Assembly: GCA_002753615.1 (NCBI GenBank)
Contig: PEAO01000003.1
Coordinates: forward strand, 1-63,773
Source: Magnetococcales bacterium DCbin2
GTDB taxonomy: Bacteria > Pseudomonadota > Magnetococcia > Magnetococcales > UBA8363
DNA: 63,773 nt
Direction of reading: 5' to 3'
Shown here: piece after piece, positions 27,500-47,208 of the stretch
Layout: every line of letters begins with the position of its first letter
Numbering within the stretch: the first letter of the stretch is position 1
Translations under genes and position numbers: made by a program
The notes under the pieces: generated by a model
The model's input: only the letters and a program-made list of their open reading frames with translations
Databases searched by the model: none
What the model was told of the DNA's origin: nothing

Positions 27500-28405
27500 A
27501 TGAAACCTCCCCATCCCATACCCTATCAAGGAAGCAAGAGGAATATTGCCAATGACATACTTTGCTATTTTCCTGATGGGGTATCTACCTTGATAGAACC
27601 ATTTGTTGGTTCTGCGGCCATCTCAATCGCAGCCGCCATGAAAGGACTAGCGCGCCACTATTGGTTAAACGATCTGAACAAGCCCCTCATGGATCTCTGG
27701 GAACAGATCATTAACCATCCAGAGCATCTTTCACAAGGTTATGACCGCTTATGGCACGAACAACAAGATAATCCTCGTGAATACTACGACAAAATTCGTT
27801 CTCAATTTAATCTTTCCGGTAAGCCTCAACTTTTTTTATACCTCCTTGCCCGTTGCGTGAAAGCGTCGGTAAGATACAATTCAAACGGAGAATTCAATCA
27901 AAGTCCCGACAATCGGCGTTGTGGTGCAAAACCAAATACGATGCGTAATATGATCCTGGGTGTGTCCGCTTTGTTTAAGGGGAAATCAAAGACCACCGCT
28001 CAAAATTACCGAGACGTACTTCAAAAGGCGGAATGTTGTGATCTCGTATACATGGACCCACCATACCAAGGGGTGAGTGGGAATCGCGACTCGCGATACT
28101 TAACTGGCGTCCAGTTTTTTGAATTTGTCGATGCATTACAGGAATTAAATCAGAGATATATAAGATATATTGTTAGTTATGATGGACGAACGGGTAAAAA
28201 AGTGTATGGAGCGTCATTGCCTCCCGAACTGAGTCTTACGCGCGTGGAAATCCAAGCTGGACGCTCATCGCAAGCGACGTTACTGGGTCGCAAAGATGTA
28301 ACGATTGAGTCTCTCTATCTCTCCCCTGCTCTTTCAGGGCAGCTATCTCAGATGCCTTCGAAACATCGCCATGTGCAAATGTCGCTATTCGGAGCCGATT
28401 CATGA
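27500..28405 (+). CDS. Dam-family (D12 class) N6-adenine DNA methyltransferase
   Basis: PYQGSKR, IEPFVGSAA, LNDLN, YMDPPY motifs. Confidence 0.92.
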   Translation: MKPPHPIPYQGSKRNIANDILCYFPDGVSTLIEPFVGSAAISIAAAMKGLARHYWLNDLNKPLMDLWEQIINHPEHLSQGYDRLWHEQQDNPREYYDKIRSQFNLSGKPQLFLYLLARCVKASVRYNSNGEFNQSPDNRRCGAKPNTMRNMILGVSALFKGKSKTTAQNYRDVLQKAECCDLVYMDPPYQGVSGNRDSRYLTGVQFFEFVDALQELNQRYIRYIVSYDGRTGKKVYGASLPPELSLTRVEIQAGRSSQATLLGRKDVTIESLYLSPALSGQLSQMPSKHRHVQMSLFGADS

Positions 28406-29139
28406 AACAACAACGGCTCCCTCAGTCGTTCATCGAACAATGCAAGAAGGTCACCGCAAAACGACCAAAAACGGTAATTGACCACATCTTGAAGCACGGA
28501 TACATCACAACGCAGGAACTGAAAGATCAATATGGCTACAACCATCCTCCTCGAGCCGCAAGAGATGTGCGCGAACAGGGCATCCCGCTTGAAACATTTC
28601 GTGTCGTGGGAACGGACGGAAGACAGATTGGCGCATATCGTTTCGGCAATCCTGCGAAAGCACGATTCTCAAAACTTCAAGGGCGCACCGCCTTCTCAAA
28701 GGATCTGCGACAAAAACTTATCGATAAAAATGGCTGCCGATGCGCCATTTACATGGAGGATTTTCCGGAAAGGGAACTTCAAATTGACCATCGAATTCCC
28801 TTTGAGGTAGCCGGTGGCCACGCCGATACGGATGAGAGGCCCGAAGACTTTATGCTGCTTTCAGGATCCGCCAATCGCGCGAAATCGTGGTCGTGCAAGC
28901 ATTGCGTTAATTGGCAAGATCTGAAGAAACCAGATGTTTGCCGCGAATGCTATTGGACATATCCCGAAAATTATACTCACGTTGCCATGCAACCTGTGCG
29001 GCGCATCGATATTATGTGGACAGAAGATGACGTAAAAATCTATGATGAATTAAAAAAACGCTCGGACAAACTTCAGAAAAATATACCGACATTCGTTAAG
29101 GATATGATCAAAGAACATGTTGGAAAAGATTGTCCCTAG
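28402..29139 (+). CDS. HNH endonuclease with N-terminal HTH, putative restriction enzyme
   Basis: CAIY..LQIDHRIP..SANRAKSWSCKHC..CRECYW; ATGA-coupled to the MTase. Confidence 0.82.
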   Translation: MKQQRLPQSFIEQCKKVTAKRPKTVIDHILKHGYITTQELKDQYGYNHPPRAARDVREQGIPLETFRVVGTDGRQIGAYRFGNPAKARFSKLQGRTAFSKDLRQKLIDKNGCRCAIYMEDFPERELQIDHRIPFEVAGGHADTDERPEDFMLLSGSANRAKSWSCKHCVNWQDLKKPDVCRECYWTYPENYTHVAMQPVRRIDIMWTEDDVKIYDELKKRSDKLQKNIPTFVKDMIKEHVGKDCP

Positions 29140-36641: not shown

Positions 36642-39600
36642 ATGGCAGCCAGTTTTTTTGAAAAACCAATCCTGAACTCGCCATACAAATATCCCAGTCA
36701 GCACTGGGAATTGGATGCTGATGGGCAGCCTACCAATAAGATCATCGCTGCCCGTCGGCTTTCGGATCTAATCACCCCGGTTCCGAAGCCAAAAAAACGC
36801 CGTGGATCCAAGGATCAGTCCACGATGATCTTTGATGATGTTTCCACAGCAGAGCAGGAATACGACCCTACGCCGTTCATCAATGAGGTCAGGAGCGCGG
36901 TCGAAAGCTGGAGAAATCTTCCTTCACCCAATCAGTGGTCTGTGACTCCAGAAACGGCCCGTCTTCTTCAATACTGGCGGCATCATTCGTTCCAAGGGGT
37001 TCGTCCCTTTTTTTGTCAGATCGAGGCCGTAGAAACGGTCATCTGGTTGACGGAAGTAGCTCCAAATCTGGGGAAACGGGGGTCGAAATACCTGGACCGT
37101 CTGAAACAAGCCAATCTGGAAGCCAATCCTGAGATTTACCGATTGGCGTTGAAACTGGCCACCGGGGCCGGGAAAACCACGGTCATGGCCATGCTCATCG
37201 CCTGGCAAGCGGTCAATGCGGCGCGTCACCCCCAGAGCAGGTTGTTCACCAGGGGCTTTCTCATCGTGGCACCCGGTATCACCATCCGGGACCGGCTACG
37301 GGTACTCCAACCCAACGATCCAGACAGCTACTACAAGAGCCGGGAAATCGTCCCCAGCGACATGCTGGTGGACTTGGACCGGGCCAAGATCATCATCACC
37401 AACTACCATGCCTTCAAACTTCGGGAGCGCATGGATGTGTCCAAAGTGGGTCGTGCCCTGCTCCAGGGGCACGGTCCTGATTTGGAAACCGCAGAAACCG
37501 AAGGTCAAATGCTCCAACGGGTGATGCCCAGTTTGATGGGCATGAAGAACATCCTGGTTCTCAACGATGAAGCACACCATTGCTACCGGGAAAAGCCAGA
37601 CAGTCATGATGTGGATGACCTTAAGGGGGATGATAAGGACGAGGCCAAAAAGAATAACGAAGCGGCCCGGCTCTGGATTTCCGGCATCGAAGCCGTCAAG
37701 CGCAAGTTGGGCGTGCGCACCGTGTTTGACCTATCCGCGACCCCATTTTTCCTGCGGGGGTCCGGGTATATCGAGGGGACGCTGTTTCCCTGGACTTGCT
37801 GCGACTTTTCCCTAATGGACGCCATTGAATGCGGCATCGTCAAACTGCCGCGCATACCCGTTGCGGACAACATCCCCGGTGGGGACATGCCCAAGTTCCG
37901 CAATCTTTGGGAACATATCGGCAAGCGCATGCCCAAGAAGGGACGCGGCACGGCCAGGGGTCTTGATCCCCTGAGTCTGCCTGCCGAACTGCAAACCGCG
38001 TTGGAAGCCCTCTACGGTCACTATGAGAAGACCTTTGAGCTTTGGAAAAAGGAAGGCATTCGCGTCCCGCCCGTTTTCATTGTGGTTTGCAACAACACCT
38101 CCACCTCCAAGTTGATCTATGACTTCATCTCTGGGTTCGAGCGTGAAAATGATGGTCAATCCCAGTTGGAGAATGGGCGATTGGCATTGTTCCGCAACTA
38201 TAACGAACACGGCAACCGTATCCCCCGTCCACGGACGCTGCTGATCGACAGTGAACAGTTGGAATCCGGCGAGGCTCTGGACGAGAACTTCCGTGACATG
38301 GCTTCTGATGAAATCGAACGCTTCCGGCGGGAGATGGTGGATCGGACTGGCGATCAACGCGCCGGGGAGAACATCACGGATTCAGACCTGCTGCGGGAGG
38401 TGATGAACACCGTCGGCAAGAAAGGCCGCCTGGGTGAAGACATCCGCTGCGTGGTTTCCGTCTCTATGTTGACGGAAGGGTGGGACGCAAACACCGTGAC
38501 CCATGTTCTGGGTGTTCGGGCTTTTGGAACCCAACTGCTTTGCGAACAAGTGGTGGGACGCGCCTTGCGCCGCCAGTCCTACGATCTGAACGAAGAGGGG
38601 TTATTCAACGTCGAGTACGCAGACGTGCTGGGGATTCCGTTCGACTTCACGGCCCAACCGGTCATCTCCAAACCCGTGCCGCCCCGTGAGACGGTTCGGG
38701 TACATGCGGTCAAACCAGAACGCAATGATTTGGAAATCACCTTCCCCCGAGTGGAAGGCTATCGGGTGGAGTTGCCCAATGAAAAGCTCACGGCCAAATT
38801 CACCGAGGACTCCGTGTTGGAACTAACACCCCTGCTGACAGGTCCGGCCATCACCAGGAATGAGGGCATCATTGGTGAAGGTGTGAACCTGACCGTCCAA
38901 CATCTCAAAGATATGCGGCGTTCCTCCATTTTATTTCACTTGACGCGCTATCTGCTCTACAACAAATACCGTGATCCCGGCGAAGAACCCAAGCTGCACC
39001 TGTTTGGGCCACTCAAGCGCATCGTCCGACAATGGCTGGATGGCGGTTATCTGCGCTGTACCGGCGGCACCTTCCCAGCCCAGTTGATCATGCATGAAAT
39101 CGCCGACATGGCTTGTGAACGGATCAAGGCAGCTATTACCGAAAGTCTGGATGGGGAAAGACCAGTCAAAGCGATCCTGGATGCCTACAACCCCAGGGGA
39201 TCCACCCAGCATGTGAACTTCACCACCTCCAAGGAAACCCGTTGGGAAACCCGGATGGACCGTTGCCATATCAATTGGGTGGTGTGTGATGGGGACTGGG
39301 AGGCGGAGTTCTGCCGCGTGGTCGAATCCCATCCCCGGGTACTGGCCTATGTGAAAAACCAAGGATTGGGGCTGGAGGTTCCCTACCTGAGAGGAGCAGT
39401 CCCCCACACCTACATTCCAGATTTTATCGTGCAGGTAGACGATGGCCATGGCCGGGAAGATCCTTTGAATCTGATCGTGGAGATCAAGGGATTTCGGGGT
39501 GAAGACGCCAAGGACAAGGCCAACACCATGCGTGCCTACTGGGTGCCGGGGGTGAACAACCTGGGCAAGTTCGGTCGCTGGGCCTTTGCCGAGTTCACCG

Positions 39601-39698
39601 AGGTATTTGCCATGGAGGCAGATTTTGGCCAAAAGGTGGACGCAGCCTTCGATGAGACCCTTAAGAAGGTGATTGACGAATCGGGAAACGCTCAATGA
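36642..39698 (+). CDS. Type III-like restriction subunit (SF2 helicase plus PD-(D/E)xK nuclease; BPTD_3080-like)
   Basis: LATGAGKT, NDEAHH, SATP, EGWDA, QVVGRALR; C-terminal YIPDF..VEIKG. Confidence 0.9.
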   Translation: MAASFFEKPILNSPYKYPSQHWELDADGQPTNKIIAARRLSDLITPVPKPKKRRGSKDQSTMIFDDVSTAEQEYDPTPFINEVRSAVESWRNLPSPNQWSVTPETARLLQYWRHHSFQGVRPFFCQIEAVETVIWLTEVAPNLGKRGSKYLDRLKQANLEANPEIYRLALKLATGAGKTTVMAMLIAWQAVNAARHPQSRLFTRGFLIVAPGITIRDRLRVLQPNDPDSYYKSREIVPSDMLVDLDRAKIIITNYHAFKLRERMDVSKVGRALLQGHGPDLETAETEGQMLQRVMPSLMGMKNILVLNDEAHHCYREKPDSHDVDDLKGDDKDEAKKNNEAARLWISGIEAVKRKLGVRTVFDLSATPFFLRGSGYIEGTLFPWTCCDFSLMDAIECGIVKLPRIPVADNIPGGDMPKFRNLWEHIGKRMPKKGRGTARGLDPLSLPAELQTALEALYGHYEKTFELWKKEGIRVPPVFIVVCNNTSTSKLIYDFISGFERENDGQSQLENGRLALFRNYNEHGNRIPRPRTLLIDSEQLESGEALDENFRDMASDEIERFRREMVDRTGDQRAGENITDSDLLREVMNTVGKKGRLGEDIRCVVSVSMLTEGWDANTVTHVLGVRAFGTQLLCEQVVGRALRRQSYDLNEEGLFNVEYADVLGIPFDFTAQPVISKPVPPRETVRVHAVKPERNDLEITFPRVEGYRVELPNEKLTAKFTEDSVLELTPLLTGPAITRNEGIIGEGVNLTVQHLKDMRRSSILFHLTRYLLYNKYRDPGEEPKLHLFGPLKRIVRQWLDGGYLRCTGGTFPAQLIMHEIADMACERIKAAITESLDGERPVKAILDAYNPRGSTQHVNFTTSKETRWETRMDRCHINWVVCDGDWEAEFCRVVESHPRVLAYVKNQGLGLEVPYLRGAVPHTYIPDFIVQVDDGHGREDPLNLIVEIKGFRGEDAKDKANTMRAYWVPGVNNLGKFGRWAFAEFTEVFAMEADFGQKVDAAFDETLKKVIDESGNAQ

Positions 39699-39702
39699 AG
39701 GT

Positions 39703-39731
39703 TTGCTATTTTCTCCGTCAAGTGGTACGTT
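39703..39731 (+). promoter_or_regulatory. Putative sigma70 promoter internal to the RM operon
   Basis: TTGCTA-N17-TACGTT with TG upstream of the -10. Confidence 0.55.
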
Positions 39732-39737
39732 GTCCGT

Positions 39738-39805
39738 GTATCCGCCCTTTGGAAGTACGCCCGCTCAACAATCCCGAGCGTGTGCCGAAACCCTGGGGCT
39801 TTTTT
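39738..39805 (+). ncRNA. Candidate structured small RNA / leader upstream of the NYN gene
   Basis: Nested pairing GCCCT/GGGGC, GTACG/TGTGC, CGCTC/GAGCG followed by T6. Confidence 0.5.
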
Positions 39806-39822
39806 GTTTTAGGGGGCCGGTC

Positions 39823-40665
39823 ATGAGGATTCGTCGTGTTGCGGTCCTCCTCGACGGGGGATTTTTCCTCAAGCGGCTACCCAAGGTTGTTGAATCGCGT
39901 TTCCGCGAGACGCCCGAAGCGGTAGCCGAAACTGCCCGCATTCTGTGCAAACGCCACGTTCAAAGGCTGATCGGCGAGGCCGAAGGGACAACCTCCAGCC
40001 GCTGGTTAGACCACGTTTACCGGCTGTTCTATTACGATGCCCGTCCCTACGATGGCATTGCCCACCATCCCATTGCCAACCGGCGCATTGAATTTGCAAA
40101 AACCGAGCAGGCACGGTTTCGGGAATCACTTTTCCAGGAGCTTCGTCAGAAGCGGAAGTTCGCCTTGCGGCTTGGCAAAGTGGCCAAGGAAGGCGACTGG
40201 CAGATTCCCTCACGTCTCACAAAAACGCTCATTAAAACAAGGGAGTTGGTTCCCATCCTGGAGTCTCTCATGCTGAATGGGAGCGAAGGGGGAGGTCTAT
40301 CCGACCTGACGGAGGAGCAACGCCGCAATCTTGAAAAACTGATCGCCGCCTGGAAGGGCTTTGGCGAGGATGACGTGAGTCTGATCCTGCGGCAGAAGGG
40401 GGTCGATATGCGGATCGGTCTCGACATCGCCTCGATGACCCTCAAGAAACAGGCCGACACCATCATTTTGGTGACGGGTGACAGTGATTTCGTCCCGGCT
40501 GCCAAGTTGGCACGCCGGGAAGGGGTCGAGTTTATTCTGGACCCCATGTGGCAGAACGTGAACGACGACCTGTTTGAACATATTGATGGTTTGGTTTCCG
40601 TTCTGCGAACAGGAAACCGGAGTGATACGTCGGAGGAGAGACCTGATGGCCCGCAAGAGTGCTGA
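39823..40665 (+). CDS. NYN-domain (LabA/DUF88, PIN-like) ribonuclease
   Basis: AVLLDGGF, LFYYD, QKGVDMRIGLDI, LVTGDSDFVPAAKLARREG motifs; start at ATG 39823. Confidence 0.9.
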   Translation: MRIRRVAVLLDGGFFLKRLPKVVESRFRETPEAVAETARILCKRHVQRLIGEAEGTTSSRWLDHVYRLFYYDARPYDGIAHHPIANRRIEFAKTEQARFRESLFQELRQKRKFALRLGKVAKEGDWQIPSRLTKTLIKTRELVPILESLMLNGSEGGGLSDLTEEQRRNLEKLIAAWKGFGEDDVSLILRQKGVDMRIGLDIASMTLKKQADTIILVTGDSDFVPAAKLARREGVEFILDPMWQNVNDDLFEHIDGLVSVLRTGNRSDTSEERPDGPQEC

Positions 40666-43444
40666 TAAATCCCTGGAAGTCGATACCCTGACCCACACGG
40701 AGGCGCACCGTCGCAACATCCCCACGGCGGAATTTCAGTCTGTGATGAAGCAGGATGAACAGTGTCCCATCCGCATCGCTTATGAGCGGCGCAATCGGGA
40801 TCTTGATCCGCAACTGGTGTGGCGCGGCAAAGATGAGCAGGACTGGTCTGATCTGGTGGTGCATGCCCCACCGCTCTACATCCAGGAGAAGGTGCATCCC
40901 AGGGTGTTGATCGAGGATCTGCGTCGGGAGAGCGAAGCCCGTTCCAAGGAGAATGAATCCCAACAACCGAAATTTCAATTTCGACTTGATCTTTTTTCCG
41001 ACTTCAACGGCCTGCCCAAGGAGGCCACCACCACCGATTTTTATCAGCATGACGGCAACTGGACCAACCGCATGATCCTGGGGGACTCTCTCCAGGTGAT
41101 GGCCTCCCTGGCCGAACGGGAGGGGCTACGCGGGCAGGTACAGTGCATCTATTTGGATCCACCCTACGGCATCAAATTCAACTCCAACTTTCAGTGGTCC
41201 ACCACCAGCCGGGATGTGAAGGACGGCAACAAGGACCATATCAGCCGCGAGCCGGAGCAGGTAAAAGCGTTCCGGGATACCTGGCGGGATGGCATCCATT
41301 CGTACCTCACCTACCTGCGGGACCGGCTCACCGTAGCCAGAGATCTGCTGGCGGATTCAGGCTCCATTTTTGTGCAGATTGGGGATGAGAACGTCCACAG
41401 AGTCAGATCTTTATTGGATGAAATTTTTGGTGAAGATCACTTCGTTGGGGAAATAGTCTTTAAAAAAACAGGGGGGCAGAGAACAACATTGATTGCTGGT
41501 GTCTCGGACTATGTCCTCTGGTACGGAAAGAATAAAGATCTGTTGAAATTTAGAAGACTGTTGAGTTCAAAGGTTTCTGATGATGGAGATGCCACTTTTC
41601 AAGGATACGACAAGGTTGATTTTGGAGACGGCACTGAAGGCAAAAAGACAGACCCTCGTTGGGCAAAGCATGGTGAGGGTATGTTGTTTCAAGCAACTAG
41701 CATGACATCTCAAAACCCTGGATCACGATTCCCTGTCGATTATTTTGGGAAAGAGTGGAACCCATCAGGAACTCAATGGTGGAAGACAGATAAAGATAGA
41801 TTTGAACGATTAATCAAGGCTAGACGAATAGTGGTAAGCGGAAAGTCATTAAGGTATAAGAGGTTTCTAGAAGATTATGCAGCATTCTCATTGACTCTAT
41901 TTTGGGAAGACACTGCAGGTGGTGTTGGTGCTGACAAAGTATATGTCGTGCAAACAAGCACCAAAATTGTCGAACGGTGTATTTTAATGTCAACAGATCC
42001 GGGGGACTTGGTTCTTGATCCAACATGCGGCTCTGGTACAACTGCATATGCTGCAGAGCAATGGGGGAGACGTTGGATTACCATCGACACATCCCGTGTT
42101 GCACTGGCATTGGCTCGTTCTCGTGTGATGGGTTCGAGATACCCTTGGTTTCTTCTGTCTGACAGTCTTGAAGGCCAAGAGAAAGAAGCGGAGATCACCC
42201 GAACCGCGCCGGTTTCCACCCCCACCCACGGCAATATCCGCCAGGGCTTCGTCTATGAACGGGTTCCCCACATCACCCTGAAGTCCATTGCCAACAACGC
42301 CGAGATCAATGTGATCTGGGACCGCTTCCAGGAGACCCTGGAACCCTTACGGGAAGCCCTCAACGCCGAAGTTGGCCAATCCTGGCAGGAGTGGGAAATC
42401 CCCCGCGAAGCCGAGAAATCCTGGTCCGCCAAAGGCAAGGATCTGCACACACATTGGTGGGATCTCCGTATCAAACGACAAAAAGAAATCGACGCATCCA
42501 TCGCCGCCAAGGCGGACTTTGAGTTCCTCTACGACAAGCCCTATGTGAACCGCTCCAAGGTCCGCGTAGCCGGTCCCTTCACCGTGGAGAGTCTCTCCCC
42601 CCACCGAGTACTCGCCGTGGACCAGGACGATGAACTGCTGGATCCGAACAGAACCCAGGCACATACCCACGACAAGGCCGATTTCGCCGCCATCATCCTG
42701 GAAAACCTGAAAACCGCCGGGGTTCAGCAGGCGCACAAGGAAGACAAAATCACCTTCACCAGCATCACCGGCTGGCCGGGCCAGTACATTGGTGCCGAAG
42801 GACGCTACATGGAGGAGGACAAAGAACGCCGCGCCGGTATCCTCATTGGTCCAGAGTTCGGTACCGTCTCCCGCCCCGATCTGGTCAGTGCCGCCCGGGA
42901 GGCCGGTGAGGCCGGCTTCAATACCCTCATCGCCTGTGCCTTCAACTTTGACGCCCACTCTGCCGAGTTCAATCAACTGGGCCATATCCCAATACTCAAG
43001 GCACGCATGAACGCCGACCTACACATGGCCAACGACCTCAAAAACACTGGCAAGGGCAACCTTTTCGTCATCTTCGGCGAGCCGGATATCGAGATACTCA
43101 AAGCCGATGATGGCCAAATCCAGGTGAAGATCAACGGCGTGGATGTCTTTAAACCCCAGACCGGCGAAGTGGAGTCTAGCGGTCCCGACGGCATCGCCTG
43201 CTGGTTCATCGACACCGACTACAACGAAGAGAGTTTTTTCGTAAGGCACGCCTATTTCCTCGGTGCCAACGATCCCTACAAGGCACTCAAAACCACTCTC
43301 AAGGCAGAAATCGACCAGGAAGCCTGGGATTCCCTCCACAGCGATCTCTCCCGTCCCTTCGGCAAACCCAAATCCGGGCGCATTGCCGTCAAGGTCATCA
43401 ACCACCTCGGCGATGAGGTGATGAAGGTGTTTGCAGTCGAATAA
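40646..43444 (+). CDS. Type III-like modification methyltransferase (beta-class N6/N4)
   Basis: YLDPPYG preceding VLDPTCGSGTT; adjacent to the Res-like gene. Confidence 0.92.
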   Translation: MARKSADKSLEVDTLTHTEAHRRNIPTAEFQSVMKQDEQCPIRIAYERRNRDLDPQLVWRGKDEQDWSDLVVHAPPLYIQEKVHPRVLIEDLRRESEARSKENESQQPKFQFRLDLFSDFNGLPKEATTTDFYQHDGNWTNRMILGDSLQVMASLAEREGLRGQVQCIYLDPPYGIKFNSNFQWSTTSRDVKDGNKDHISREPEQVKAFRDTWRDGIHSYLTYLRDRLTVARDLLADSGSIFVQIGDENVHRVRSLLDEIFGEDHFVGEIVFKKTGGQRTTLIAGVSDYVLWYGKNKDLLKFRRLLSSKVSDDGDATFQGYDKVDFGDGTEGKKTDPRWAKHGEGMLFQATSMTSQNPGSRFPVDYFGKEWNPSGTQWWKTDKDRFERLIKARRIVVSGKSLRYKRFLEDYAAFSLTLFWEDTAGGVGADKVYVVQTSTKIVERCILMSTDPGDLVLDPTCGSGTTAYAAEQWGRRWITIDTSRVALALARSRVMGSRYPWFLLSDSLEGQEKEAEITRTAPVSTPTHGNIRQGFVYERVPHITLKSIANNAEINVIWDRFQETLEPLREALNAEVGQSWQEWEIPREAEKSWSAKGKDLHTHWWDLRIKRQKEIDASIAAKADFEFLYDKPYVNRSKVRVAGPFTVESLSPHRVLAVDQDDELLDPNRTQAHTHDKADFAAIILENLKTAGVQQAHKEDKITFTSITGWPGQYIGAEGRYMEEDKERRAGILIGPEFGTVSRPDLVSAAREAGEAGFNTLIACAFNFDAHSAEFNQLGHIPILKARMNADLHMANDLKNTGKGNLFVIFGEPDIEILKADDGQIQVKINGVDVFKPQTGEVESSGPDGIACWFIDTDYNEESFFVRHAYFLGANDPYKALKTTLKAEIDQEAWDSLHSDLSRPFGKPKSGRIAVKVINHLGDEVMKVFAVE

Positions 43445-43487
43445 TGAAAATCATCAGAACGACACCAACAGGCAAAGGATCTACAAA

Positions 43488-45116
43488 ATGAACGGCCTAC
43501 GTGAGGCACTAACTCCCCTCGCTGCCCGGATGCCACGGGTTGTTCGCGAACATGAAATCCTTCGGGTGGTTGGCGTGTTGAAAAGTAGAGAGGATCAGCA
43601 AACCAATGCCACAGCTCGCAAGGAAATCCTGGCTTGGTTGCAAAAGCGGAGTGGTGGACGTTTGCCTAAAGAGGCATGGGAATGTAAGAGGTTTGAATAT
43701 TTATCCGGTGGCAGGAATAGCGTAGGTGTCCGTATCGCAACCCCAGAGATCGACCTTTGGTCAGTACGTGCGGATGATCCTGATAAAAATATTCCTGGTC
43801 GCACATGGACAACAGAAGTAACAGTGGGCGGGACTTCCGGTGAATTGCCTACCTTCACGGCTCGCCTGATTGTCAGCACCACGGAAAACGATTTCGTGGA
43901 CGGGTCACAAGGCGCGGCAGTACCAGGTTTTGTGAAACAATTAGCAACAAAGCTGGGGGTACAGCGGGACGGTTATCATTTCTCGCCTGACCCACGATTG
44001 ATTGACTCGGAAGAGGATTCTGAATGGCTAATCAACACGCTGTTAGACCCTTCTCGCCACATTCCAGTCTTCATATTGTCTGTTCCCAATAATGCGGAAC
44101 ATCAAACGGCACCACTACTTGATGCGAACAACCTTAGCAAAGCAACCATTGGAATTGGAATCGTCGCTATCACAACCCCAAAATCTAGCTGGGCACTCAC
44201 GCATAGGTTTGGCAAACAACGGTCGGTGTTTAATGGTGCAGCAAGAACTTATCTCCCCGGCTTTTCGGATGACTCAGACCCCTATAGCCACAAACTGGCA
44301 TTGGCAGATCAATTAGCAACGCCTAAAGGGAAAACGGATTGCCTCCGGTTGATGAGGAACTTGGCAGCGGCGGAAAGCTTACGGCACACGCGACTTGGAA
44401 AGGATGTACTGGCATTTTCTGCCATCCGCAATGCGTCGATACAGATAAACCAAAAAAATCTTGAGGAGTTTGGAGCGAGTAGTGATATCAAACTTGATGC
44501 TGCAACTACACGTATTCGTGCGTTGGAGGAACGGGTCGAGTCGCTGGAAAAGGATAATGAACATTATCTTGATGAGTACCTAAAGGAATATCAAAGAGCG
44601 GAAGATGCTGATAAGCGTAGTTTTTCTCTTACATTTCGGATTCAGCAACTCAATAAGCAAATTAAGGATAGTGGGGCAGTTCCCGACACCAATATTACTT
44701 TTCCCAAGCAATGGCGTGATTTTGGCGACTGGTGCGACCAGCATCTCGCTGGACGGGTAGTGCTTGCTTCCGCTGCCCGTCGTGCTGTTCAAGAACCAGA
44801 GTATAATGATATTGAACTTGCTGCACGGTGCTTATTATGGCTCGCAAACGATTATCGTGAAAGCAGGCTGGGGCAATCTGATCTCCGAGTTCGTGAGGCT
44901 CCCATTGAGTCTGGTGTACGCAACGCAGCCTGTGGATCTGATGAATACGAAATCAATTGGAACGGACAACGGCACGTCGTCGATTGGCACATAAAAAATG
45001 GCGGCAATACCCGTAACCCATCTCGGTGCCTGCGCATTTACCACCTTTGGGATCCTGCCAGCCAGCAAGTGATCGTCGCTGATATGCCTGCTCACAGGCG
45101 TACAGGCGCGACCTAA
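43488..45116 (+). CDS. Hypothetical protein with coiled coil and possible C-terminal RelE-like domain
   Basis: Long ORF; coiled coil IRALEERVESLEKD; C-terminal WHIKNGG..RCLRIYHLWD..VIVADMPAH; start 43488 or 43431. Confidence 0.7.
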   Translation: MNGLREALTPLAARMPRVVREHEILRVVGVLKSREDQQTNATARKEILAWLQKRSGGRLPKEAWECKRFEYLSGGRNSVGVRIATPEIDLWSVRADDPDKNIPGRTWTTEVTVGGTSGELPTFTARLIVSTTENDFVDGSQGAAVPGFVKQLATKLGVQRDGYHFSPDPRLIDSEEDSEWLINTLLDPSRHIPVFILSVPNNAEHQTAPLLDANNLSKATIGIGIVAITTPKSSWALTHRFGKQRSVFNGAARTYLPGFSDDSDPYSHKLALADQLATPKGKTDCLRLMRNLAAAESLRHTRLGKDVLAFSAIRNASIQINQKNLEEFGASSDIKLDAATTRIRALEERVESLEKDNEHYLDEYLKEYQRAEDADKRSFSLTFRIQQLNKQIKDSGAVPDTNITFPKQWRDFGDWCDQHLAGRVVLASAARRAVQEPEYNDIELAARCLLWLANDYRESRLGQSDLRVREAPIESGVRNAACGSDEYEINWNGQRHVVDWHIKNGGNTRNPSRCLRIYHLWDPASQQVIVADMPAHRRTGAT

Positions 45117-45129
45117 CCGAGGAACACAA

Positions 45130-47208
45130 ATGGAGTTTCGCATAGCCGATACCTTCACCGACTCGTTGGCCAAACTGACCGGACAGGAGCAAAAGGCGGT
45201 CAAAACCACAGCCTTCGACCTGCAAATGGATTCCGTCAATCCGGGCATGAGCTTTCACAAGCTGGACCGGGCCAAAGATCCCAATTTTTGGTCCGTGCGG
45301 GTCAATGCGGATATCCGCCTTATCGTCCATAAAACCGCCTCCAGCCTTTTGCTGGTCTACGCTGGCCACCACGACAAAGCCTACAAGTGGGCGGAGTGCC
45401 GCAAGATCGAACGCCACCCCAAGACGGGTGCCGCTCAGTTAGTGGAAATCAGGGAGACGGTCGAAGAGATCGTCATTCATCAGACACGGGTAGAAAAACA
45501 GCCCGCTCTCGCAAAACCATGCATCTTTGCCAATTTGAGCAAGGGGGATCTCCTGGGATTCGGCGTACCCTCCGAGTGGGTAAACGAGGTTCGCAAAGCC
45601 ACCGAAGACTCCTTGTTCGATATCGCTGAACACCTGCCACAGGAAGCCACCGAGGCACTGTTGGAATTGGCCGTTGGCGTGCAACCCAAAGTCGCTCCCG
45701 TCACCGCAGAATCCGACAACCCCTTCGACCACCCTGATGCCCAACGCCGTTTCCGCGTCATGGCCAATCAGGAAGAGTTGGCTATCGCCCTCAATGATCC
45801 CTGGGAGAAATGGACCGTCTTCCTTCACCCCTCCCAGCGCCAATGCGTTGAAAAGGACTACACCGGCCCATCTCGTATTTCCGGCTCTGCGGGAACGGGA
45901 AAGACCATCGTTGCGCTCCACCGCGCTGCCCATCTGGCGCGGAAACACCCTAATGCGAAAATCCTTCTCACTACTTTTTCGTCTACTCTGGCCAGTACGC
46001 TTCAGACCAAACTCAACCGGTTGGTGGGAAACGAATCCGACATGGCCCGGCGGATCAAAGTCCGTTCAATCAAACGGATTGGTGAGGATCTGTACGCCCA
46101 ATCCCATGCCACTCCAAATATTGCCGACGATGCAACCATTCGCAACCTGTTAAGCCAGCATGCCGCTTCCCTGGGTACTCACCACTTCTCCGATCCATTC
46201 TTGCTGGGGGAATGGAAGGATGTGGTGGACGCTTGGCAATTGAAAAGTTGGGAAGATTACCGTGATGTGCAACGGCTTGGACGCAAAACGCGAATCGGCG
46301 GCAAACAGCGTGAGATGTTGTGGGCGATCTTCGCCACAGTCAGGGCTGAACTGGATGACCGAAACCTCATGACCTGGGCGGACCTGTTCGGAAGGGTGAC
46401 ACAGGAGATCCTCGACCAGGCAATGACCCCGTTCGATTTTGCCGTGGTGGACGAAGCCCAGGATCTTGGCGTGGCCGAAGTGCGATTCTTGGCCGCCTTG
46501 GGATCTGGCCGTTCAAACGCGCTCTTCTTCGCTGGAGATTTAGGGCAACGCATCTTCCAGCAGCCCTTCTCATGGAAATCGCTGGGTGTGGATATCCGTG
46601 GCCGGTCCGGCACCCTCCGCATCAACTACCGTACATCCCACCAGATTCGCAGTCATGCTGACCGTTTGCTTCCTTCAGCCATCTCCGATGTGGACGGTAA
46701 TGATGAAAACCGCATCAAAACGATTTCGGTTTTTGATGGACCTCCCCCTCAGGTTAAAATCGTTGACAGCATCGAGGAGGAATCTGCCGTTGTTGCCGGA
46801 TGGCTCATGCAGCAGTTGGATGATGATTTGCAGCCCCATGAAATTGGCGTGTTTATCCGTTCCCCTGCACAACTGGATAGAGCTAGAAATGCTGTAAAAA
46901 TGGCAGGTGCAACCGCCCTTGAATTGGATAACGGAGCGGAGACCGAAGCCGGGAAAATATCCGTCTGCACCATGCATTTAGCTAAAGGACTAGAGTTCCG
47001 GGCCGTGGCTGTTATAGCCTGCGACGATGAGGTATTACCCCTTCAGGAGAGGATTGAAGCTATTTCTGACGATGCTGACCTTGAAGAAGTCTATAACACG
47101 GAGCGACATCTCCTTTATGTTGCATGTACCCGCGCTCGTGATCACCTGCTGGTCACTGGCGTGGATCCGGCATCCGAATTTCTCGACGATTTTGGATTGG
47201 AACGGTAG
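45130..47208 (+). CDS. UvrD/SF1 helicase with N-terminal RelE-like domain
   Basis: GSAGTGKT, VVDEAQD, NYRT, HLAKGLEF, LYVACTRAR; N-terminal FWSVRVNADIRLIVH. Confidence 0.88.
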   Translation: MEFRIADTFTDSLAKLTGQEQKAVKTTAFDLQMDSVNPGMSFHKLDRAKDPNFWSVRVNADIRLIVHKTASSLLLVYAGHHDKAYKWAECRKIERHPKTGAAQLVEIRETVEEIVIHQTRVEKQPALAKPCIFANLSKGDLLGFGVPSEWVNEVRKATEDSLFDIAEHLPQEATEALLELAVGVQPKVAPVTAESDNPFDHPDAQRRFRVMANQEELAIALNDPWEKWTVFLHPSQRQCVEKDYTGPSRISGSAGTGKTIVALHRAAHLARKHPNAKILLTTFSSTLASTLQTKLNRLVGNESDMARRIKVRSIKRIGEDLYAQSHATPNIADDATIRNLLSQHAASLGTHHFSDPFLLGEWKDVVDAWQLKSWEDYRDVQRLGRKTRIGGKQREMLWAIFATVRAELDDRNLMTWADLFGRVTQEILDQAMTPFDFAVVDEAQDLGVAEVRFLAALGSGRSNALFFAGDLGQRIFQQPFSWKSLGVDIRGRSGTLRINYRTSHQIRSHADRLLPSAISDVDGNDENRIKTISVFDGPPPQVKIVDSIEEESAVVAGWLMQQLDDDLQPHEIGVFIRSPAQLDRARNAVKMAGATALELDNGAETEAGKISVCTMHLAKGLEFRAVAVIACDDEVLPLQERIEAISDDADLEEVYNTERHLLYVACTRARDHLLVTGVDPASEFLDDFGLER

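Follow-up and report, generated by a model that had tools for sequence, protein, structure and literature searches.

The window analyzed here comprises the first 63,773 nucleotides of contig PEAO01000003.1 of Magnetococcales bacterium DCbin2. It contains the res and mod genes of a type III restriction-modification (RM) system, with a gene for an NYN-domain protein lodged between them. A sequence-only reading of this stretch had described, in the 124-bp gap between res and mod, a sigma70-like promoter and an interrupted hairpin that ends in six T residues, with the start codon of the NYN gene 17 nt past the last T. All of these elements, the ATG at 39823 included, were found at the positions given for them (Table 1). 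The gene is also intact, as had been stated, with an open reading frame of 280 aa that matches Pfam NYN at E 3.4e-9; its end is overlapped by the start of mod by 20 nt. The drawing of the hairpin had to be revised in part. The helices GCCCT/GGGGC and CGCTC/GAGCG stand, but the third one, GTACG/TGTGC, is a result of the energy model, and homologues show a non-Watson-Crick AGUA/GAA loop at this place. According to the comparison of homologues and to the Rfam structure, the loop is closed by GG/CC and GC/GC pairs.

Table 1. Features of the res-mod region of the window (positions of the whole stretch).
Feature	Position	Strand	Basis and remarks
res gene for a type III restriction endonuclease of the BPTD_3080 family; bounds the cargo slot on the left	36642..39698	+	NCBIfam NF046055, 1369 bits; Pfam ResIII
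res stop codon	39696-39698	+	Read from the sequence
Predicted sigma-70-type promoter	39703..39731	+	-35 TTGCTA 39703-39708, 17-nt spacer, -10 TACGTT 39726-39731
Structured RNA, predicted ~66 nt	39740..39805	+	Alignments A1 and A3, pair counts, tree-aware test
RNA outer stem	39744-39748/39795-39799	+	GCCCT/GGGGC
RNA GG/CC pairs	39751-39752/39791-39792	+	Comparison of homologues
RNA GC/GC pairs	39759-39760/39784-39785	+	Comparison of homologues
RNA inner stem	39762-39766/39776-39780	+	CGCTC/GAGCG
Conserved internal loop, AGUA 39754-39757 opposite GAA 39787-39789	39754..39789	+	A3 column counts
U-run (T6) that follows the outer stem without a gap and is predicted to act as a leaky intrinsic terminator	39800..39805	+	Sequence; A3 columns
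Shine-Dalgarno-like AGGGGG, outside the conserved hairpin	39811..39816	+	Sequence
Predicted ribonuclease of 280 aa with an NYN domain (LabA/DUF88-like, PIN fold), member of phrog_5783	39823..40665	+	Pfam NYN
mod gene for a type III methyltransferase; bounds the slot on the right	40646..43444	+	PADLOC MTase_III, 1396 bits

Taken alone, the hairpin and the promoter of the window are not beyond chance. The hairpin has a folding energy of -20.6 kcal/mol (z -1.71), and 12 of 200 shuffled sequences were equally stable, while the promoter scores 9.7 and a score of 9.5 was already reached by 28% of the shuffles. Both the promoter and the terminator were absent from the list returned for the window by a consensus scanner. 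It is because the motif, the covariation and the promoter register recur in homologues that we regard the module as real.

The reading frame of the NYN gene is also open through the promoter and the RNA (39673-40665, 330 aa from a TTG), and the frame upstream of NYN is likewise open in two relatives (324 aa from stop to stop). This is probably a matter of chance and kinship, and the ATG at 39823 matches the start used in the family. Further along the window, a protein recognized by PADLOC as HEC-07 (43431-45116, E 5e-187) lies downstream of mod and is followed by a UvrD-like helicase (45130-47208); the helicase also follows mod in several relatives. Two overlapping open reading frames at 27500-29139 resemble, by eye, a Dam-type methyltransferase and an HNH nuclease and possibly represent a second RM pair.

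The NYN domain (PF01936) of the window protein scores 37.8 bits against a Pfam cut-off of 24.2. The protein falls into phrog_5783 (E 8e-74), where the function is given as unknown, and receives weak NYN hits from PADLOC (E 1e-6). Five aspartates (D11, D195, D201, D220, and D222) are present in it and are invariant in a set of 71 members, and all three motifs were found by a strict regular expression in 87 of 96 protein clusters. The family is basic, with a pI above 8.5 in 93% of the 71 members and many near-invariant Lys, Arg, and His positions. A search by sequence found no solved structure. An AlphaFold2 model built from the 71 sequences reached a pLDDT of 92.7, and comparison with VIA gave a Z of 15.8 to 2qip (rmsd 3.0, 155 aligned) and of 15.8 to the NYN domain of Marf1, 5yaa (rmsd 2.6, 146 aligned), well ahead of the following entry at 10.6. 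Foldseek likewise returned 2qip. The modeled fold suggests that the NYN protein is a ribonuclease.

Fold and acidic site are common to the cassette protein and the LabA/DUF88 group NYN.COG1432 (2qip, VPA0982, and the Marf1 NYN domain). In contrast to that group, the cassette proteins are basic, mobile, and RNA-led, with a length of ~220-285 aa that includes insertions. Housekeeping-type NYN genes of the same genomes match the cassette family weakly (E 1e-7 to 1e-4). The family itself is large, taking in 7,766 of 8,000 scored candidates, with 567 representatives at E<=1e-30. A 2017 review describes NYN.COG1432 as being of unknown function and unstudied as nucleases (PMC5499597).

Conservation of the RNA upstream of NYN genes

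Sixty genome loci with relatives of the NYN protein at 37-78% identity were taken, and a regular expression located the RNA motif upstream of the gene in 55 of them. One of the five misses (L057) is a variant that could be aligned later. At L059 the RNA precedes a displaced 5' fragment of the NYN gene, L060 scores E 0.04 with the RNA model, and L030 and L048 have an upstream hairpin that the model missed. We added 13 plasmid and phage records at 29-42% identity, from Thermus, Xanthomonas, Aeromonas, Salinivibrio, Campylobacter, Burkholderia, Lactococcus, Moraxella, Streptococcus, Dorea, Escherichia, and Proteus. These have a hairpin upstream and, as judged by eye, most have a promoter before it and a T-run after it. 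The sample was completed by 205 viral loci.

From 156 distinct cores, 46 were set aside as mislocated or variant, and 71 short and 39 long forms were kept. Alignment A3 consists of 64 short forms, seven near-duplicates having been removed. In A3, 84.9% of the cells are paired and two-sided changes occur in all 15 pairs, while slid controls reached at most 60%. A tree-aware test, which approximates R-scape, gave E<0.05 for four of the 15 pairs and E<=0.23 for three further ones; the level of E<0.05 was reached by none of the four inner-stem pairs and by none of seven others. The same test detected one covarying pair outside the drawn structure, a mismatch that flanks the loop (E 0.02). The outer stem and the U-run region are the parts of A3 that covary best. 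Because the score by which the sequences were picked rewards the core loop and the outer pairs, A3 overstates both, and it is for such a selected set that the loop columns read A59 G60 U64 A64 opposite G58 A63 of 64. T was found in 63, 59, 52, and 51 of 64 sequences at four columns after the hairpin. Among 96 unselected protein clusters, a strict core consisting of AGUA/GA, the flanking pairs and a T-run was present in 55 and absent in 41; as a background, it occurred in 0.6% of shuffled sequences and in 4 of 2,846 other stretches of sequence.

The RNA of the family is a hairpin of 55-95 nt whose stems covary and whose AGUA/GAN loop is near-invariant. A U-run follows the hairpin, and the apex accepts an additional helix of 20-30 nt. 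The AGUA/GAN loop is common to members from Firmicutes and Proteobacteria; enterobacterial and Bacteroidota members carry different loops. Upstream of a more distant NYN gene (L416, G078:C157, E 6e-49), a different long hairpin was seen at positions 70-150 (z -4.0), and related NYN subfamilies may carry other RNAs.

A model of the RNA (R1) was run over 75 sources (535 kb, both strands) and gave 61 hits, each of them upstream of the gene or of a gene fragment. An antisense reading was rejected, as every R1 hit lies in sense orientation. R1 matched 59 of 74 held-out loci, 53 of them at E<=0.01. Folding of the 15 held-out loci without a match yielded mostly long interrupted hairpins with other loops, and in one Campylobacter type among the R1 misses the core is located further upstream. 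The genome of the window contains a single match, the window itself being in the training set. With regard to the check that had been proposed for the upstream regions, homologues do have a conserved and covarying structure there. A motif-first viral scan comprised 119 loci. Of the first 80 pattern hits, 70 lacked an R1 match (E<0.001) where the pattern lies, and the ten RNAs confirmed by R1 in these 80 precede an NYN gene in six cases, do not in three, and lie at a contig end in one. Five further RNAs were tested among the other 39, short viral loci, and two of them precede an NYN gene. On three viral contigs (L297, L307, and L316) a high-scoring RNA with promoter and T-run was seen and no NYN gene; these copies would be remnants or decoys. 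A second RNA copy was observed at L451 (2821-2875, minus strand), ~300 nt upstream of the gene-adjacent one.

Unpaired loop bases are conserved better than stem bases, and they persist at 30-45% protein identity, a distance at which flanks and stems are replaced. A terminator has no need of such loop conservation. It also bears on the possibility of a plain attenuator, in which a strong promoter and a leaky terminator set a low level of NYN, no protein partner is involved, and the loop is kept merely by descent. Such an attenuator would suit the strong covariation of the U-run and outer stem and the simple hairpin of a distant relative (L452), but it is hard to reconcile with loop bases that stay in place amid such turnover, and we consider it highly improbable.

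A sigma-70-type promoter with a score of at least 10.5 was found in 78% of 116 RNA loci and in 5% of shuffles. Among the 73 proteobacteria-like loci, there are 64 in which 5-9 nt lie between the end of its -10 box and the RNA; in the remaining 43 loci, which are mostly Firmicutes-like, the promoter lies mainly 14-56 nt upstream of the RNA. The promoter is kept in the res-mod gaps of two relatives. By their arrangement, promoter, non-coding RNA, terminator, and NYN gene appear to form one unit, as the layout of type III toxin-antitoxin systems requires. In Firmicutes-like members (L078-L090, L207, L241, and similar ones) a small additional AT-rich inverted repeat was often noticed by eye between the promoter and the main hairpin, 15-55 nt before the RNA; it may represent an operator or a hairpin at the 5' end.

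The distance from the end of the hairpin to the start codon is 12-60 nt (median 24, 97 loci). For the read-through leader of the window, a refolding is predicted in which the 3' strand covers the Shine-Dalgarno sequence. However, of 97 such leaders, 75 retain the outer stem with a probability >0.8, and on these grounds we rejected a conserved Shine-Dalgarno switch. The leader may nevertheless serve autoregulation, with the NYN protein binding or cutting its own leader in cis and limiting its expression through termination or mRNA decay, and with free RNA that does not neutralize the enzyme. The linkage data fit such a leader equally well as an antitoxin. The RNA is always 5' of the gene, in sense, and in single copy, its hairpin abuts the U-run, and the Rfam family TEG147, to which some members belong, is typed Cis-reg, a label for which someone may have noted the downstream gene. 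The predicted covering of the Shine-Dalgarno sequence in the window would fit as well, but this refolding is not general and the start codon stands well past the hairpin, so that we regard autoregulation without an antitoxin role as possible and rather doubtful.

Genomic setting, gene loss and the link to Teg147

The cassette lies near the res/mod family of the window in 9 of 60 genome loci, as seen in flanks of up to 4 kb and with some contigs being short. Among 14 res-mod gaps of relatives, five are empty, two hold RNA and NYN gene, one holds the RNA and a 3' remnant of the NYN gene, four hold a small gene with a PIN gene, and two hold Bro-N. DUF2281 was found in two of the four gaps with a small gene and a PIN gene, in one case below the cut-off. 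Because its content varies among these 14 gaps, we regard the res-mod slot as a site for cargo, in which pairs resembling toxin-antitoxin genes are often lodged, and the RM operon is one landing site of the cassette and not a required partner. The special tie to RM proposed in the sequence-only reading, in which the NYN protein acts as a back-up effector in the manner of PrrC, did not hold up, with 51 of 60 loci lacking such a neighbor and with the cargo of the slot varying.

The same data bear on the alternative that the hairpin simply terminates res, with the NYN gene being a PrrC-like accessory of the RM system. The res-mod position here and the nine loci near the res/mod family speak for this, but the lack of a res/mod neighbor within up to 4 kb at the 51 loci and the lack of RNA in 11 of the 14 related gaps leave it largely refuted and with hardly any probability. 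Because the covarying RNA, its own promoter, and the U-run accompany the NYN family across phyla, the hairpin is not just a res terminator.

The cassette is also located beside integrases and beside cI in lambdoid phages, where its position after cI is that of rexAB. At the site after an SNF2-like gene in pTet-type plasmids, either of two NYN cassettes or none was observed (L439, pTet of C. jejuni, compared with L065 and L066). In E. coli, 275 of 5,426 genomes match L072:1380-2358, only 74 of them over 80% of the query, and many O157:H7 strains retain the leader together with roughly 118 codons from the start of the gene.

Locations in prophages and defense slots, together with a conserved non-canonical loop that suits protein binding, would be expected of a phage-sensing switch. 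In such a switch, expression would be held down by the RNA until a factor from a phage or from stress binds the loop and increases translation or read-through. The leader of AbiD1 is an example of this type. However, the loop is identical from Firmicutes to Proteobacteria, hosts with unrelated phages, and the NYN gene is the only constant partner of the RNA, which makes such a switch quite unlikely.

In 151 genomes of the phylum of the window, the RNA was found in ten genomes and the gene in seven; in five genomes both stand side by side, and five have the RNA without a family gene. Two more distant genes of this phylum have no R1 hit, one of them having a different long hairpin and the other being without a 5' part. 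In 151 genomes of another order, three RNAs and six genes were found; two of the three R1 misses are clear variants, and the third concerns a distant protein with a simple hairpin. Gene remnants beside an intact RNA were found in G062, G030, and G304 and at S. aureus-type loci. The RNA thus often outlasts the gene, and genes of the core family retain a hairpin. If the gene is toxic and the RNA protective, the RNA is expected to outlast the gene; the same is also expected because 65 nt are a smaller target than 800 nt. The asymmetry of loss therefore gives modest backing to a toxin/antitoxin reading.

The comparison with Rfam had a divided outcome, in that the window RNA has no match but members from Firmicutes match TEG147 (RF03535). 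For the window RNA, no hit to RF03535 was obtained at E<=10, which places it below the gathering threshold of 56.1 bits, and Rfam gave no relevant match for the window or for the eight genome loci scanned. Two NYN-linked RNAs from Firmicutes are above this threshold (L077 with 80.9 and L075 with 58.3 bits). For four S. aureus-type Teg147 loci, RF03535 gives 84-90 bits and R1 gives 52-57 bits (E<1e-12); they are outside the training set of R1, and their close relative L077 is inside. Teg147 and the cassette RNA have the same fold and the same AGUA/GAA loop and are bridged by one model, R1. No intact NYN gene was found at the four S. aureus-type loci examined, and in two such loci the similarity to L077 continues over the ribosome-binding site into the opening codons and fades beyond them, the start of the gene being decayed. 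These likenesses suggest that Teg147 is the orphaned RNA of an NYN cassette. Because Firmicutes copies pass Rfam TEG147, the RNA family is already partly known.

Teg147 of S. aureus, also named sRNA85 and srn_0960, appears among the bona fide sRNAs of Liu et al. (2018, PMC5826253) with a length of 60 nt; this class is defined there by an own promoter and terminator and by detection in at least two studies. Table 1 of that paper gives no Northern for Teg147, and the paper offers neither a function nor a link to NYN. This listing is the sole expression evidence for the RNA family. The literature searched, without the name Teg147 and with subscription papers mostly outside, yielded no account of a Teg147-NYN link or of an RNA-led NYN cassette. 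The parts of the Fremin 2021 supplements that were searched gave no clear match, and the main text of Beaume 2010 does not mention 'Teg147'. For the E. coli prophage homologue, there were no reads in four raw-read runs, and four contig runs showed a flat depth without RNA ends. In C. jejuni 81-176, the strain of the dRNA-seq data in PMC3656092, the NYN gene is absent from the expected site of pTet.

A candidate RNA antitoxin with an NYN nuclease

On balance, and by analogy with AbiF, we lean towards the view that the cassette consists of an RNA antitoxin and an NYN toxin, in which the RNA would silence the predicted RNase by binding to it. Transcripts from the promoter would mostly stop at the U-run and supply an excess of the ~65-nt RNA, and rare read-through would provide the basic NYN protein, which would bind the RNA at the conserved loop and be held inactive. 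Once host transcription ceases, because a phage infects or the cassette is lost, the RNA would decay or be displaced. The freed RNase would then cut cellular RNA, and the infection would be aborted or the carrier element stabilized. We infer these steps, from termination through binding and toxicity to release. In favor of this view count the linkage of RNA and gene, the covarying stems and conserved loop, the register of the promoter, the listing of Teg147 as a 60-nt RNA, the asymmetric loss, the slot-mates and the positions beside cI and integrases, and the five invariant aspartates and high pI of the protein. Against it count the lack of the strict loop in 41 of 96 clusters, the different loops of enterobacterial and Bacteroidota members, the 15 held-out loci that R1 missed, the eleven pairs that stayed above E 0.05, the weak PADLOC hits, the missing Northern for Teg147, and the cis-regulatory type that Rfam assigns.

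The order of promoter, short structured RNA, terminator, and read-through into an RNase gene is the same as in AbiF/AbiFr and in RCd22-AbiF of C. difficile, which are type III systems with a HEPN toxin. The absence of a second promoter and the location on prophages are further points of likeness (bioRxiv 2025.04.15.648962; PMC13064643; PMC12737573). For RCd22-abiF it has been described that the short terminated RNA dominates, that read-through makes the toxin, and that the RNA acts in cis as well as in trans (bioRxiv 2025.04.15.648962). By analogy with this double action, the leader and the antitoxin readings would be compatible and not exclusive. In contrast to AbiF, the cassette protein has the NYN/PIN fold and not HEPN, and the abiF motif RF03085 had no match in any Rfam scan of cassette loci. 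Moreover, the motif of AbiF and ToxIN stands apart from the terminator and frequently occurs in repeats, whereas in the cassette one hairpin is both.

ToxIN, CptIN, TenpIN, and AbiQ have been described with an RNA unit and a terminator before an endoribonuclease gene. Their RNA consists of tandem repeats, in contrast to the single, non-repeated hairpin of the 124-bp gap, and their nuclease fold is unrelated to NYN, which is all that Pfam finds in the cassette protein. The repeat RNAs of classical type III systems are cut by the toxin into pseudoknots. Type II VapBC systems, including those of VapC20 and VapC26, also possess a PIN-superfamily RNase, and such pairs occupy the same res-mod slot; however, their antitoxin is a protein, and NYN forms a separate structural group (PMC5499597). 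Identity of the cassette with AbiF, with ToxIN-like systems, or with PrrC-type systems was rejected, the first for want of HEPN and RF03085, the second for want of tandem repeats and a ToxN-like fold, and the third for want of a constant association with RM.

By its sequence signature, the AGUA/GAN loop is putatively of the bulged-G or loop-E type. The signature matches that of the 23S sarcin-ricin loop, as read from the 23S of a relative; the pair that follows is Watson-Crick in 23S and mostly a mismatch in the cassette RNAs. The bulged-G motif is common in RNA. A bolder form of the antitoxin reading, which we judge unlikely, is that the RNA acts as a decoy of the sarcin-ricin loop. The NYN protein would recognize the bulged-G motif of 23S, be trapped by an uncleavable look-alike without the GAGA tetraloop, and attack ribosomes once the decoy runs out. 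The cassette would then be a fifth structural class of RNA-antitoxin system, and orphan copies (Teg147, viral contigs) would give immunity against incoming cassettes. The bulged G2655 has been described as a toxin recognition site (PMC2896532), and the PIN toxins VapC20 and VapC26 as cutting the sarcin-ricin loop (PMC5737657).

Judged from its recurrence in sequence data, the cassette is real and widespread across bacteria and prophages. Toxin-binding RNA antitoxins are known for few nuclease folds, among them AbiF, which has been proposed as the ancestor of Cas13. If the antitoxin reading is true, the PIN/NYN case would mean that the same solution has arisen again in a very large unannotated family. 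It would also assign a first role to a bacterial subfamily of LabA/DUF88 proteins and account for Teg147, an orphan RNA of S. aureus.
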